From contig JAHPZH010000008.1 in NCBI GenBank assembly GCA_019058315.1, positions 64,001 through 128,000 on the forward strand: a DNA stretch of 64,000 nt. The letters run 5' to 3'. The notes below the pieces were generated by a model. It searched no databases, had not been told where the DNA came from, and saw nothing but the letters and a program-made list of their open reading frames with translations. Positions 19,261 through 23,410 of this stretch are shown piece by piece. Each line of letters begins with the position of its first letter. Position 1 is the first letter of the stretch. The stretch is from Candidatus Helarchaeota archaeon. GTDB lineage: Archaea > Asgardarchaeota > Lokiarchaeia > Helarchaeales > RDOG01. The position numbers and the translations under genes were made by a program.

Positions 19261-19391
19261 TTAGGATAATTATATGGTTTTTAAATTATTTAGTTATCCG
19301 ATCAAATACTGATTAATTTTTAATTAACTAGTCTTATTCTTATGTAAACATAGAATAGTTGTTATTTAATCTAAAATTTGGAGTATATTTT

Positions 19392-20744
19392 ATGTGTGAC
19401 ACAATAATAGTATTAGGGAATTCTACAGAAGATGGATCGACTATTTTTGCTAAGAATTCCGATAGAGAGGCTAATGAACCTCATGCAATATGTTATTTAC
19501 CAAGCTCTACTCATAATAATAGTGAACAAATTCAATGTCAATATATTTCAATTCCTCAAGTAAAAGAAACATTTGCAGTTATTCTTTCCAAGCCTGTTTG
19601 GTTAAAAATTGGTTGCGAGATGGGTGCAAATGAATTTGGTGTTGTCATGGGAAATGAAGCTGTTTTTACCAAAGAGAAATATGAAGAAGAGGGTTTACTA
19701 GGAATGGACCTTATGACAATTTCTTTACAAAGATCAAAAACAGCCAAAGAAGCTTTGGAGATAGTTACTGATTTACTTGAAAAATATGGACAGGGAGGAT
19801 CAGGACATCCATTTGATCCGAATTATATTTATCATAATTCTTTTATTATAGCTGATCTTAATGAAGCATGGATTTTAGAAACTGCAAATAAGTTTTGGGT
19901 TGCAAAGAAAGTCGATAATATCGGAACAATTTCAAACGGTTTAACAATTGAGGATAATTGGAACCGTGCTTCATCGGGTCTTATAGAAAATGCAATTAAA
20001 AAAGGTTGGTGTGAATCAAAATCGGATTTTAATTTTAGTAAATGCTATTCAGACCCAGAATTACGAATCATAACAAATTGTATAGAACGTCAATCCAGAA
20101 CTATTAATCTATTGTTTGATAAAAAAGGTCAAGTAAAAGTAACTGATATAATGGAAATTTTAAGAGATCATGGTTTAAAATTCAAAGAAAAACCATTTCA
20201 ACCTTCAAAAGGCACAATGTCGAGTGTTTGTATGCATTTGAATTCTAAAGCTATTTCACAGACTACAGCGAGTTATGTTGCTCATTTAGCAAAAGATATT
20301 CATGTCCATTGGTTGACAGGTACTTCCGCTCCATGTTTGAGCATATTTAAACCTTTCTTCTTCGAAAATCCTGAAGCATTAAAAAATATAAAGGTTCCAT
20401 CTTTAAAAAATGATAATAAATCTCTTTGGTGGAGACATGAAATACTTCATAGAGAGGCTATACTTGATTATCAAAAAAGAGCACCAATTATAGTTAAAAA
20501 TAGTCAAGAATTAGAACAAGAATTAATTAATGAAGTTAATGACGTATTGAACAAATCAGATTCAATTAATAAAGAGGAATTTAAAATTAAATTAAATGAA
20601 ATCAGTACTAAAGCATTGGATCAGAATTTTTCTTTAATTAAAAGTGTATATGAAACCATTTCAAAAATGGAGATCGAAAAATCGGCTCCAAAAAGTTATA
20701 TAAAATTCTGGAAAAAACTGAACGCCGAAGTTAATATAAATTAA
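19392..20744 (+). CDS. peptidase C69 / secernin-like Ntn-hydrolase
   Basis: MCDT N-terminal nucleophile Cys, FAKNSDR, EMGANEFGV, NEAV, GMDL. True start is ATG 19392. Confidence 0.9.
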   Translation: MCDTIIVLGNSTEDGSTIFAKNSDREANEPHAICYLPSSTHNNSEQIQCQYISIPQVKETFAVILSKPVWLKIGCEMGANEFGVVMGNEAVFTKEKYEEEGLLGMDLMTISLQRSKTAKEALEIVTDLLEKYGQGGSGHPFDPNYIYHNSFIIADLNEAWILETANKFWVAKKVDNIGTISNGLTIEDNWNRASSGLIENAIKKGWCESKSDFNFSKCYSDPELRIITNCIERQSRTINLLFDKKGQVKVTDIMEILRDHGLKFKEKPFQPSKGTMSSVCMHLNSKAISQTTASYVAHLAKDIHVHWLTGTSAPCLSIFKPFFFENPEALKNIKVPSLKNDNKSLWWRHEILHREAILDYQKRAPIIVKNSQELEQELINEVNDVLNKSDSINKEEFKIKLNEISTKALDQNFSLIKSVYETISKMEIEKSAPKSYIKFWKKLNAEVNIN

Positions 20745-20764: not shown

Positions 20765-21970
20765 TTAACTACTTAACATTATATTCTTAATTCTTTTTAG
20801 TTCACTCAACATTGCTTCGCGTAGCATTAAATATGATTCCTCTTCTTCAGAATTGTACGATTTGCTTTCACCTTCTTTTTGGTTCAGCAAATCTTGCATC
20901 TTAACATATGTTGAAGCAGGAATACGTCCCTCAAATAATTGAGTCTTAAGAACTTTTAATCTTTGTTGTATCTCAAAATGAGTTAAATTAACATAAATCT
21001 CTTCTTCCTCTGGTTCGGGTATTTCTGGAATTATAGGTTCAAGTTTTACTGGATGAATAATTTCTGGACATTTTTGCACCTGTCTCATTTGGTTAAGAAC
21101 ATGTTCTGGGAGGTCTCCTTCTATTATAGCAAAAATTTTAGAGAGGATCAATAATTTATCTTGTTCGATAAATAAATTATTCCAACCATAAGAGTCTGAT
21201 ACAATGCACAATGCTTTTTTAGGAATAATAGGTTTATTTTGGCAATTTTCAAAATTTTCGCAATTTTCACACATTAAGGATTCATAGATTACAGATCCAT
21301 TGATAATATCGACAGTGAATAAACCATACTTATTCAAGATTTTGATATTATTATCTACAATTTTTAAGCCCATTTGATTTAAGACATCATAGAAATTTTC
21401 ATACCCTTGTTGTTTTAAATCATAGTATCTTTGGAATTGCTCTCTAATTTTAGTGGTAATTAAATCTGAGGATTCTTGAATCATATTAAGTGATATTTCT
21501 GCCAAGTAACCCAGAATTTCTTTTTGAAAATATAATCTATTTTCAAAATCAAAATAAAAAATATAATCTTCTTTACTAAATTCTTCAATAATTTCGTTAT
21601 TTGATGAATTATCCGAATTTAAACCTATAAGGAAAATAGGAATAGGTCCAATTGAATTATATATTTCATCAAGGATTTCGGTGAGAAAAGGAGAAATTGT
21701 TTTTGGATTATTATAATCAAAGAACACAACGACACTAGAGGTGCCACGATAGAAACTTGAGCGGAAAAATCTCAATCTCTCTTCCATAGATATATCCCAA
21801 AAGCTGAAATCTACTTTATAACCATTTAAATTAACGTGTGTTAAGAGTATATCTAACCCAATGGTGTTTTTATATGATTTATTAAATCCGCGTTTTAGGA
21901 TGTCCCCTGTAAAATCCAGTTTTAATGCTGGATGATAAAACAGTAGTGATTTAAGCTTATATGAGACTAT
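20765..21970 (-). CDS. degenerate Rab-like small-GTPase domain fused to a Cys-rich domain and a SHOCT-like tail
   Basis: Frame stays open 61 codons above the tracked Met, to an ATA preceded by GGGGGT. It encodes YKLKSLLF...FNKSYKNTIGLD...FSFWDISMEERLRFFRSSFYRGTSSVVVFFD...PIFLIG. Confidence 0.8.
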   Translation of the reverse strand: MVSYKLKSLLFYHPALKLDFTGDILKRGFNKSYKNTIGLDILLTHVNLNGYKVDFSFWDISMEERLRFFRSSFYRGTSSVVVFFDYNNPKTISPFLTEILDEIYNSIGPIPIFLIGLNSDNSSNNEIIEEFSKEDYIFYFDFENRLYFQKEILGYLAEISLNMIQESSDLITTKIREQFQRYYDLKQQGYENFYDVLNQMGLKIVDNNIKILNKYGLFTVDIINGSVIYESLMCENCENFENCQNKPIIPKKALCIVSDSYGWNNLFIEQDKLLILSKIFAIIEGDLPEHVLNQMRQVQKCPEIIHPVKLEPIIPEIPEPEEEEIYVNLTHFEIQQRLKVLKTQLFEGRIPASTYVKMQDLLNQKEGESKSYNSEEEESYLMLREAMLSELKRIKNIMLSS

Positions 21971-22027
21971 TGAACCCCCCTTTAATATTTAAAAAGACAG
22001 TTTTTTGACTTAGGGCTAAAACTAAAT

Positions 22028-22222
22028 TCAGCCCCCTTTAATTTTTGGGAGAACTAAGATTTTATCTTCAGGCACTAATACTTGATTAATTTCGGCTTTT
22101 TTACCATTTACTAGTACAGCGAAAAAATTATCCTTAAGGTTTAATTCTTTTAGTAAATCACTTACGGTCTTTTTTTTCTTAACTTGAATAGTTTTGTATA
22201 TTAAATTGGTGGATTTTGACAT
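22028..22222 (-). CDS. ThiS/MoaD/SAMP-family ubiquitin-like protein
   Basis: TVSDLLKEL...AVLVNG...DKILVLPKIKGG with C-terminal GG. Confidence 0.9.
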   Translation of the reverse strand: MSKSTNLIYKTIQVKKKKTVSDLLKELNLKDNFFAVLVNGKKAEINQVLVPEDKILVLPKIKGG

Positions 22223-22453: not shown

Positions 22454-23410
22454 GTGTTCAAGATGGCAACTTCTGATATAGAATTAAAAAACAGATTAAA
22501 ACTTATTCATAACAAAACCCTTTGTGATTTGTTAAGATTATTCAATTCAGAACCACAGAGGGAATATTCTATTGAAGAATTAAAAGAAAGATCAAATCTC
22601 AATAGTTCTACTTTATTTAATTCACTCAAAAAATTGAGAAAAATAGGTTATATTGAACAACTTGTCAGAGGTCATTATAAAATCAATTATATTGTTGGTC
22701 CTTCTCTTATAAAAATGTTAGACGAACTTGAAAAGAATAAACTACCAAATATACCATTAAATCATCGTAATGGCAATTTTCTTTCCTTATTAAGACGTTT
22801 TAAAAATCCTGATATTGTCTTTTCTAAATTATTAACAACATATAGAACAATAAAAATCTCAGATTTAATTGATGCAGGAGTATCAAGAGCGACAGCATTT
22901 CGTATTTTAAAAGAATTAACACATCTTGGTCTTTTAATAAAAGATGAGAAAGAAAAAAACTGGAAATTCTCACCAAGTCTAGATTTCTTAAGAAAGATCA
23001 TTGTTCAAGAAATAACTCAAATCCCTGGGAAAATATTAAATATTTTTCATAATCTTAAAAAGAATTTACCCGAATTTACTGAATACCAAGGTTCTATTAT
23101 CTGTTCCATTGAAGGGTTCCCTATTTTTGTTCATTCAATTGAAAAGAAAATTAGTGACTTCTCAGCTTGGATCTCAGCTCAGATGAATGTCGCAACCCAA
23201 CAATGTGCAGTTGTTGATTATGATCTTGAATTTTTTATTAATTTTACAGAAAGAGGTTTGATATTTGCTTATCCTTTAAAGAAAATTACTTTAGCAATAG
23301 TTCTTCATACTGAAAATAAATTCAAGGATTTTCAAAAATTAATTAAAATTTTAAATAATACCGCAAGAAAAATAGATATAGAAGCTGAAAAATTAAAAAT
23401 TGAATTATAA
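22454..23410 (+). CDS. double winged-HTH regulator fused to a C-terminal roadblock/LC7 domain
   Basis: SSTLFNSLKKLRKIGYI and GVSRATAFRILKELTHLGLL HTHs; GSIICSIEGFPI...SAWISA...ERGLIFAYPL roadblock pattern. Start may be ATG 22463. Confidence 0.8.
   Translation: MFKMATSDIELKNRLKLIHNKTLCDLLRLFNSEPQREYSIEELKERSNLNSSTLFNSLKKLRKIGYIEQLVRGHYKINYIVGPSLIKMLDELEKNKLPNIPLNHRNGNFLSLLRRFKNPDIVFSKLLTTYRTIKISDLIDAGVSRATAFRILKELTHLGLLIKDEKEKNWKFSPSLDFLRKIIVQEITQIPGKILNIFHNLKKNLPEFTEYQGSIICSIEGFPIFVHSIEKKISDFSAWISAQMNVATQQCAVVDYDLEFFINFTERGLIFAYPLKKITLAIVLHTENKFKDFQKLIKILNNTARKIDIEAEKLKIEL

Follow-up and report, generated by a model that had tools for sequence, protein, structure and literature searches.

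Genes at the locus

The window analysed here is a stretch of 64,000 nucleotides (nt) from the genome of a Candidatus Helarchaeota archaeon, an Asgard archaeon with a genome of 5.8 Mb and a guanine-plus-cytosine content of about 29% (G000 in the coordinates below). The minus strand of the window carries a gene whose product joins a Rab-like domain with degenerate nucleotide-binding motifs to a domain with five conserved cysteines, and directly upstream of it lies a small gene for a ubiquitin-like protein (Ubl). Taken together, sequence comparison and structure modelling incline us modestly towards one explanation, that the larger protein is a nucleotide-independent scaffold which would dock, and perhaps carry, the Ubl encoded upstream. 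The features of the two genes that bear on this explanation are listed below, with residue numbers taken from P0001, the 407-residue open frame that includes six residues above the ATA codon.

22028 to 22222, minus strand: Ubl gene of the SAMP2/ThiS type, 64 amino acids (aa), ending LPKIKGG; matched by Pfam ThiS and directly upstream
20765 to 21970, minus strand: whole gene, 401 codons, from ATA (21968-21970) to the TAA stop (20765-20767)
21975 to 21983, minus strand: Shine-Dalgarno (SD)-like AAAGGGGGG, 4 nt before the ATA
21968 to 21970, minus strand: probable near-cognate start ATA, from the orthologue codons, the genome-wide ATA/ATT enrichment and its unchanged state in related strains
21785 to 21787, minus strand: first canonical start, ATG, the Met of WDISMEER inside the Rab-like switch II; the annotated start, judged wrong
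21539 to 21967, minus strand: Rab-like pseudo-GTPase domain, residues 8-150 (Pfam Ras/Roc, Foldseek)
21917 to 21940, minus strand: degenerate P-loop FYHPALKL in place of GxxxxGK[ST], seen in the sequence
21374 to 21538, minus strand: helical hairpin linking both domains, residues 151-205, with modelled helices 151-171 and 176-205
21059 to 21373, minus strand: five-cysteine alpha/beta domain, residues 206-310, in the order b1-b2-b3-Cys knuckle-b4-a2-a3; predicted Ubl-docking surface at 260-300
21206 to 21271, minus strand: Cys knuckle C240, C243, C249 and C261; the fifth conserved Cys, C307, lies at 21068-21070

Integrity of the reading frame

The minus-strand frame from 20768 to 21988 holds 407 open codons without a stop or frameshift. 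The first ATG, GTG or TTG in this frame is the Met codon of WDISMEER, and because of this the mechanical open reading frame (ORF) call gives a protein of only 340 aa from the internal Met, as does the database entry for the same gene. A sequence-only reading, made earlier from the letters of this DNA and a list of its ORFs, had counted 61 codons above that Met without ATG, GTG or TTG. Re-reading of the frame agreed with the count, and these upstream codons were found to match Rab profiles and to be under purifying selection. The ratio of nonsynonymous to synonymous substitution rates (dN/dS) of the whole gene was 0.13-0.14 against two orthologues (85% and 72% identical), with purifying selection across all parts of the gene. 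For the 59 aligned codons drawn from the 61 upstream of the Met (Y10 to the residue before the Met), it was 0.074 against the 85%-identical and 0.053 against the 72%-identical orthologue. A strain about 95-99% identical, present in three metagenome runs of an independent study, was free of indels, and the ATA was not among its listed changes. An AlphaFold (AF2) model of the 407-residue frame, built on 50 relatives, reached a mean predicted local distance difference test score (pLDDT) of 84.6.

The gene is almost certainly intact and conserved. The sequence-only reading had also held that it is not a pseudogene, on the argument that stops and frameshifts are missing. The conclusion was right and the argument weak; it is the dN/dS values (0.13-0.14, and 0.05-0.07 upstream) and the relatives in 156 of 400 Asgard genomes that carry it. 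A decaying pseudogene, or an N-terminally truncated protein of 340 aa made from the internal Met as in the public records, would account for the lack of a canonical start upstream and for the calls of gene finders (340 aa here, 346 aa in P0005). This reading is contradicted by the data and is highly improbable. Besides the low upstream dN/dS, Pfam homology sets in 36 residues before the Met, and translation from the Met would cost a domain modelled with confidence its strands beta1-beta3. The frame was unbroken in six orthologues as well as in the independent metagenomes, and housekeeping enzymes of the same genome have confirmed ATA or ATT starts. Homologues starting at the internal Met would speak for the shorter protein, and the homologues do not start there; both entries recorded in that way (the 340-aa call and P0005) keep the conserved upstream frame.

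The Rab-like domain

Pfam Ras (PF00071) matched the extended frame at 45.8 bits (6e-12; cut-off 21.6). The alignment sets residues 32-136 on profile positions 21-125, so that homology reaches well into the codons before the Met, and no residues are aligned to the P-loop section of the profile. The best sequence matches in the PDB were Rab35, Sec4, Rab1 and Rab8, where WDISMEER stands against WDTAGQER, FYRGT against YYRGT and GLNSD against GNKND. These alignments agree with the earlier description of YKNTIGLD, WDISMEER, FYRG and VVVFFD as Rab-like, and the RabF-like motifs TIGLD, WD....ER, RFFRSSF, FYRGT and VVVFFD are retained. Foldseek placed the model on Rabs with a template-modelling (TM) score, normalised by target, of up to 0.81; several of its top matches were nucleotide-free complexes of Rabs with guanine nucleotide exchange factors, which is suggestive only. 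The sole NCBIfam match was small_GTP, below its cut-off. In the AF2 model, strand beta1 occupies residues 8-18, immediately past the ATA, and helix alpha-1 is only four residues long.

The protein thus shares the fold of the Rab GTPases, and it differs from them in the parts that handle the nucleotide. Walker A is missing, the G3 Gly has become Met, the catalytic Gln has become Glu, GNKxD has become GLNSD and the G5 SAK is gone after strand 6, while the Thr of G2 (NTIG in switch I) and the Asp of G3 (WD) are retained. The C-terminal prenylation cysteines are lacking as well, the protein ending in ...KNIMLSS, and some 250 extra residues form two further modules. FYHPALKL at G1, the loss of the G3 Gly and GLNSD at G4 had all been noticed from the letters, and each is seen in the translation and in the Rab alignment. 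Wherever the recorded sequence or the upstream frame of an orthologue covers the region, the motif YHPxLxLDF is conserved; the Lys of the P-loop varies among the orthologues (K/K/K/N/N/Q).

The same loss runs through the family. GxxxxGK[ST] is missing in 85 of 86 members and in all 30 further loci, and the loop sequence varies with the subfamily (YHPxLxLDF, GDxxxDxW, GEEEPxKTG and GxNPALMAG); therefore, it is the loss that is conserved, and not a new motif. The only member found with an intact Walker A (GAVGTGKT) is P0019 (L020:1282-2355), which has already lost the G3 Gly and NKxD and is possibly an intermediate toward the dead form, judging from its motifs. By sequence, this is a family of pseudo-GTPases throughout.

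A protein that still works as a GTPase (or ATPase), holding its nucleotide through a non-canonical loop like some atypical P-loop proteins, appears quite improbable. The surviving G2 Thr, the G3 Asp and the Asp in GLNSD near G4 do leave room for weak or unusual nucleotide binding and weigh to that extent against a nucleotide-free scaffold, and the relative P0019 has a canonical Walker A. On the other hand, the loop contains no glycine and has Asn or Gln instead of its Lys in orthologues, nothing is left of the G3 Gly, of the catalytic Gln, of the N and K of G4 or of G5, and the model shows helix alpha-1 cut down to four residues. The loss is moreover family-wide with a different loop in each subfamily, which argues against a conserved alternative binding site. 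We consider that a normal GTP cycle is very probably absent. The domain most likely binds no nucleotide and would serve as a scaffold of fixed conformation, of the type of class I pseudoGTPases. The sequence-only reading had proposed such a nucleotide-independent pseudo-GTPase scaffold, and the comparison supports it.

Class I pseudoGTPases, such as CENP-M, the pG1 and pG2 domains of p190RhoGAP and the N-terminal domain of AAGAB, keep a GTPase fold under selection after the loss of the nucleotide motifs and presumably act as protein-binding scaffolds (PMC5593906, PMC12490416). The GTPase fold, degenerate G motifs and purifying selection that mark this class were all found in the present domain. 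It differs from the known cases in being archaeal, in forming a large family of its own, in its fusion to a Cys-rich domain and in its link to a ThiS-type Ubl, and its non-binding is read from sequence and model.

Distribution of the family

A phmmer search with residues 140-407 against 1.84 billion representatives returned 79 clusters at 50% identity, and a hidden Markov model (HMM) of the C-terminal domain found the family in 156 of 400 Asgard genomes, usually as one copy each and with open frames of about 320-400 aa. In the N-terminal part of 50 members scanned, Pfam Roc matched 40 and Ras 31. It is an undescribed, Asgard-wide and Asgard-specific protein family; no literature on it was found under the topics of Asgard GTPases, pseudoGTPases and Asgard Ubl or E2-like proteins, and the same topics returned no description of an archaeal pseudoGTPase family. 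A structural paper on Asgard GTPases makes no mention of a degenerate P-loop or of such a fusion.

The source genome holds two copies. The second (L002, G000:C1:198599-202405) is a protein of 301 aa with a TTG start and without Walker A. Downstream of it lies the gene of a zinc-ribbon protein of 170 aa, which matches TackOD1 and the RING finger below threshold, and upstream that of a V4R-domain protein. The locus L029 (G125:C35:2775-6230) has two tandem members; in the second, the open frame seen is missing the greater part of the Rab-like domain. The gene of P0019 adjoins two VapBC pairs.

The five-cysteine domain

The helical hairpin leads into a domain with the cysteine pattern C-x2-C-x5-C-x11-C plus C307. 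The sequence-only reading had written it as CENCENFENC..C..C, and it is present as described. All five cysteines are kept in 72 of 75 family members. At least four invariant and suitably spaced cysteines, as a Cys4 site needs, are present, and four of the five probably hold a metal, either Zn or an iron-sulphur (Fe-S) cluster. Residues 172-312 were modelled with a pLDDT of 90.3, in the order of a long helix, three strands, the knuckle of C240, C243 and C249, a fourth strand ending at C261, two helices and C307.

Searches for relatives of this domain outside the family gave little. There was no significant match in Pfam, nothing at E < 0.1 by Foldseek of the domain model against the PDB, nothing up to E 10 by hmmsearch of the domain profile against PDB sequences and no usable match by features in the ESM Atlas; by shape, the best ESM Atlas match was a DUF4132/DUF7737 protein with a TM score by query of 0.56, which is uninformative. 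Roadblock and longin identities were considered for this middle domain and rejected, as none such occurred among the structural matches. The structures that consistently came out on top, as weak matches, belong to the superfold of ubiquitin-conjugating (UBC), UEV and RWD domains (conjugating enzymes or E2s, the UEV domains of Tsg101 and BRE, and the RWD domains of GCN2 and the kinetochore), which has the same order of an N-terminal helix, a four-stranded meander and two C-terminal helices. Whether the topology is UBC/RWD-like is, in our judgement, evenly balanced.

As an E2 homologue the domain is a lead. Pfam UQ_con does not match it and the HPN motif is absent. In hhalign against an Asgard profile of about 35 E2s (32 selected sequences and the E2s of the own genome), the alignment was colinear and not significant (P 0.06, probability <1%); it sets LCIV..s.GW on the active-site stretch vCvgiLgkdW, with the same Cys-x7-Trp spacing, and the predicted partner is likewise ubiquitin-like. 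As a separate observation, canonical E2s (UQ_con at E 1e-10) were found in 0 of 6 genomes of the f31 lineage, a small sample, and the Cys-domain family occurs in most f31 genomes.

The ubiquitin-like gene and the predicted complex

The upstream gene encodes a protein with a C-terminal Gly-Gly that matches Pfam ThiS (PF02597) at 32.2 bits (cut-off 22.5) and is nearest to the PRK06437/SAMP2 models of NCBIfam, yet below their cut-offs. It is adjacent to the pseudo-GTPase gene and co-directional with it in 6 of 6 orthologous loci, 0-80 nt apart or overlapping; in two of these the genes abut or overlap. The orthologous loci share a syntenic block of a coenzyme A (CoA) ligase, a helix-turn-helix (HTH) regulator, the Ubl and the pseudo-GTPase gene. 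The same Ubl subfamily also adjoins members of two distant subfamilies, with about 20-30% identity to this protein, one in the genome G125, where two tandem family members enclose the Ubl gene, and one in G117 and G118, which are of a different class. The paired Ubls form one subfamily with an invariant LPxIxGG end (L58, P59, I61, G63 and G64). A second copy of this Ubl subfamily was found elsewhere in the source genome (G000:C9:47113-47295, E 1.4e-22 to the Ubl profile). The sequence-only reading made no mention of a link to the upstream gene.

Modelled as a complex, the protein and the Ubl gave an ipSAE of 0.63 (0.62, 0.63 and 0.64 in the runs) against 0.00 for all three controls. Of 80 solved complexes, 58 attained the mark for this score, as did 2 of 110 mismatched pairs. 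The pLDDT of the partner was at least 73, and at least 74% of the contacts were common to the runs. Recall of a solved structure is unlikely, because no similar complex is known. The modelled interface brings Ubl residues 9-14 and 53-64 against protein residues 198-206, 260-276 and 279-300. These 33 interface residues hold 9 of the 13 conserved positions of the domain (hypergeometric P 3e-4), namely C261, I262, G268, W269, L279, K284, P294, V297 and Q300, and the conserved positions outside it are C240, C243, C249 and C307. The closest pairs in the model run antiparallel, from 270:55 to 262:61, and by extrapolation Gly63-Gly64 would therefore come near C261. On this evidence the model tips us, slightly, towards a protein that docks its co-encoded Ubl.

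Several points weigh against such a role. In the majority of the family an adjacent Ubl gene is missing (the f31 and f6 lineages, and 4 of 4 metagenomic contigs), as it is at the paralogue in the same genome. The Ubl subfamily is wider than the family, in 256 of 400 genomes against 156 of 400, and in one genus in 39 of 42 against 0 of 42; therefore, the Ubl has other roles, and since it is so much wider, presence and absence across the 400 genomes say little either way. Adjacency within the orthologous group may be the inertia of a syntenic neighbourhood. The complex score is the model's own confidence on user-made alignments, and the model sees conservation, so that the overlap between interface and conserved residues is not fully independent.

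If these points were decisive, the adjacency would be incidental, the Cys domain would be a Zn or Fe-S module for another ligand (nucleic acid, protein or a redox signal), and the protein would be a pseudo-GTPase adaptor unrelated to the Ubl. The members without a neighbouring Ubl gene, the wide occurrence of the Ubl without this family and the block of CoA ligase, HTH regulator, Ubl and pseudo-GTPase gene, which could be an inherited order, would all fit, and a C-x2-C-x3-6-C spacing is compatible with Fe-S motifs. This account is left with a pairing that recurs in three subfamilies at about 20-30% identity, one of them in another class, with genes that abut or overlap in two orthologues, with a complex model that passes where three controls all score 0.00, and with an interface made of residues conserved family-wide. 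We hold it to be a doubtful explanation, if one to be taken seriously.

SAMP2/ThiS/MoaD-type modifiers work with partners such as UbaA, and in the TtuA-TtuB pair a three-Cys [4Fe-4S] cluster receives the C-terminus of the Ubl. The present locus resembles these systems in its 64-aa ThiS-family beta-grasp neighbour ending in Gly-Gly, the tail of which is predicted to reach a cluster of conserved cysteines, as in TtuA-TtuB. It differs from them in that the protein is without an adenylation or PP-loop domain and that the locus contains no gene for an activating enzyme (E1), the eight ThiF-like E1 genes of the source genome lying elsewhere. We know of no E2-like or receptor protein of this architecture for SAMP-type Ubls. 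PADLOC gave no defence-system match for the protein or the Ubl.

A sharper form of the docking explanation, rather than its opposite, would make the Cys domain a very divergent E2-like (UBC-fold) carrier, to which a ThiF-type E1 would pass the activated Ubl on Cys261 as a thioester or a thiocarboxylate/persulfide, with the dead Rab-like domain as a targeting module. The colinear alignment to Asgard E2s with equal Cys-x7-Trp spacing, the fifth conserved Cys where four are enough for a metal site, the Ubl tail modelled antiparallel along 270 to 262 with Gly63-Gly64 near C261 by extrapolation, and the eight ThiF-like E1 genes would agree with it. The alignment itself (P 0.06, probability <1%), the lack of a UQ_con match and of the HPN motif, and a locus without an E1 gene do not, and C261 may be just the fourth metal ligand. 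We regard such a carrier as unlikely. Its full form, a dedicated Asgard E2-like carrier for a SAMP2/ThiS-type modifier, with a metal-bearing UBC-fold domain that takes the Gly-Gly onto Cys261 and a dead Rab-like targeting arm, seems slightly less likely again.

The probable ATA start

The start of the pseudo-GTPase gene was read from the G-run before the ATA. GGGGGG at 21975-21980 is followed by TTCA (4 nt) and then by the ATA. The 16S rRNA of the genome ends in GGATCACCTCCT, with the usual CCTCC anti-SD, and the G-run is therefore able to pair with it. The sequence-only reading had placed an SD before an ATA start. The SD stands, with different letters: it had been given as GGGGGT, and the run is six G followed by TTCA. 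The orthologues have AAAGGGGG or AAGGAGG at the same place, and an SD-like run followed by TCA or CCA and TAT(AAR), which is the start of strand beta1, was found in all six orthologous loci read. The codon that follows the SD in each is as follows.

Window: ATA
L012: ATA
L011: GTA
L014: GTA, shifted downstream by one codon; above it, a GTG overlaps the stop of the Ubl gene
L056: GTT, beginning 1 nt past the TAG stop of the Ubl gene
L013: ATG

All of these codons fit purine-U-N and are third-position mismatches to the initiator anticodon.

Genome-wide, codons were counted that lie 4-9 nt after GG[AGT]GG and at most 25 codons from an upstream in-frame stop, with the frame open for at least 200 codons beyond and free of canonical starts both upstream and in the next 15 codons. 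ATG was counted 51 times, TTG 28, ATT 12 and ATA 10, with every other codon at 3 or fewer, and these rare codons mostly adjoin an ATA or ATT. Counted once per unique SD-led long ORF (n = 149), 117 had a canonical codon, 18 ATA or ATT, and 14 another. Examples are C3:707152 (ATT), C5:1073665 (ATA) and C3:791747 (ATA) of G000, and a few further near-cognate candidates use CTG, ACG or ATC. Pfam confirms three near-cognate N-termini in housekeeping enzymes of the same genome: a flavin adenine dinucleotide (FAD) oxidoreductase, in which the Rossmann GxGxxG begins at residue 8 after ATT, a 2-hydroxyacid dehydrogenase that begins at ATA, and a subunit of pyruvate:ferredoxin oxidoreductase. The orthologue comparison and the ATA/ATT enrichment back the start proposed by the sequence-only reading, and translation probably begins at the ATA or a neighbouring near-cognate codon.

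Other starts were considered and rejected. Both L011 and the related strain (21941 C>A, plus strand) have CTT in place of the CTG at L16, initiation at the CTG of L24 would remove strand beta1, and the ATA that opens the frame as codon 1, just past the upstream stop, is located before the SD. A fusion of Ubl and GTPase by read-through or frameshift was rejected too, since no single recoding event fits all loci; the two genes are in the same frame with 3-5 stops between them in the window, L011 and L012, and in different frames in L014 and L056.

The bacterial genes infC and pcnB are initiated at AUU or AUA. The present gene is like them in a near-cognate start that stands behind a good ribosome-binding site and is kept among relatives, and differs in being one among many in its genome (18 of 149) and in having orthologues that also use GTA and GTT. 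No literature on near-cognate starts in Asgard archaea was found in a search on near-cognate start codons in archaea.

Two copies of an 11-nt string, CCCCCTTTAAT (minus strand ATTAAAGGGGG), lie in the window, at 21976-21986 and 22032-22042. One encodes the IKGG end of the Ubl, and the other forms the SD region ahead of the ATA, with the reading ILKGG in the pseudo-GTPase frame. As this string repeats and the Ubl stop of L056 lies 1 nt before the pseudo-GTPase N-terminus, the spacer of about 57 nt between the genes looks like a duplication or insertion that would have left an old Ubl 3' end as ribosome-binding site.

The C-terminal tail

Three further features make up the end of the protein.

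20981 to 21058, minus strand: Pro/Glu-rich linker of low confidence, residues 311-336 (pLDDT <50 for 311-321)
20861 to 20980, minus strand: SHOCT-like helix-Gly-helix hairpin, residues 337-376, by profile-profile comparison
20768 to 20845, minus strand: C-terminal helix, residues 382-406, in the closest orthologues only

The Pro/Glu linker and LKVLKTQLFEGRIPASTY, both named by the sequence-only reading, are present in the translation. The AF2 model has tail helices at 337-352 and 358-376, joined at EGR. The tail shares with SHOCT (PF09851) its C-terminal helix-Gly-helix pattern, here L..L...L..G.I....Y, and differs in that the Pfam model of SHOCT misses it: no match was found at E up to 10 on ten family tails (this one and nine related), and a genome scan with the same model found four other genes and not the present one. 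In hhalign, a profile of 32 family tails aligned over 30 columns with a target profile of the four SHOCT domains of the own genome, a profile of four sequences (probability 78%, P 1.8e-5). The earlier term 'SHOCT-like tail' holds at the profile-profile level and finds no backing from the Pfam model; it is fair as a description, with membership unproven.

Neighbouring genes

22454 to 23410, plus strand: divergent regulator with two winged-helix parts (residues 25-69 and 133-166)
19359 to 20744, plus strand: peptidase C69 gene, convergent with the 3' end of the pseudo-GTPase gene

The regulator has a C-terminal domain of about 140 aa without a Pfam match, for which a language-model search gave weak roadblock/LAMTOR-type leads (0.80, under the threshold of 0.9). 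Because it is syntenic with the Ubl/pseudo-GTPase pair in all orthologues, we consider it a candidate partner of the Rab-like face. The peptidase C69 gene is there in the window, in L014/L016 and in L056, and is absent in L011; therefore, it is not a fixed part of the block.

Proposed function of the protein

The explanation that we favour, a scaffold that docks the upstream-encoded Ubl, would work as follows. Translation would begin at the ATA behind a strong SD, as in about one in eight of the SD-led long genes of the genome, and this weak start probably holds the protein sub-stoichiometric to the Ubl. The Rab-like domain, which keeps the Rab fold and its switch and interswitch motifs, would bind no nucleotide and act as a scaffold of fixed conformation. 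The helical hairpin would connect it to the probably metal-stabilised five-Cys alpha/beta domain, whose most conserved surface would, as predicted, grip the Ubl by its final beta-strand and its LPxIxGG tail, with the Gly-Gly end placed beside Cys261 by extrapolation from the model. The SHOCT-like hairpin probably mediates self-association. The protein may thereby serve as a receptor or carrier which couples the Ubl, in its free or activated form, to any partner bound at the frozen Rab-like face.

Implications

The probable ATA start has a consequence for annotation. The public record of this gene drops 61 residues owing to it, and near-cognate starts affect about one in eight SD-led long genes of the genome. 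Gene finders truncate genes with such starts, and surveys of Asgard GTPases based on called proteins consequently miss or misjudge them.

Asgard archaea are studied for the origins of the eukaryotic small-GTPase and ubiquitin systems. The family described here is widespread among them and usually single-copy, and in it, as judged from motifs and models, a Rab-like domain appears to have been turned into a nucleotide-free scaffold, of which no case was found in the literature searched. It suggests that the evolution of pseudo-GTPases is not restricted to eukaryotes. With its fused Cys-rich domain and its repeated pairing with a ThiS/SAMP-type Ubl, the family offers a concrete protein pair, in which a receptor for archaeal Ubls, or an E2-like step, could come to light. 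To our knowledge, SAMP-type tagging has so far been thought to require only an E1. The reading of the protein as an E2-like carrier, if true, would give SAMP-type tagging an E2 step.

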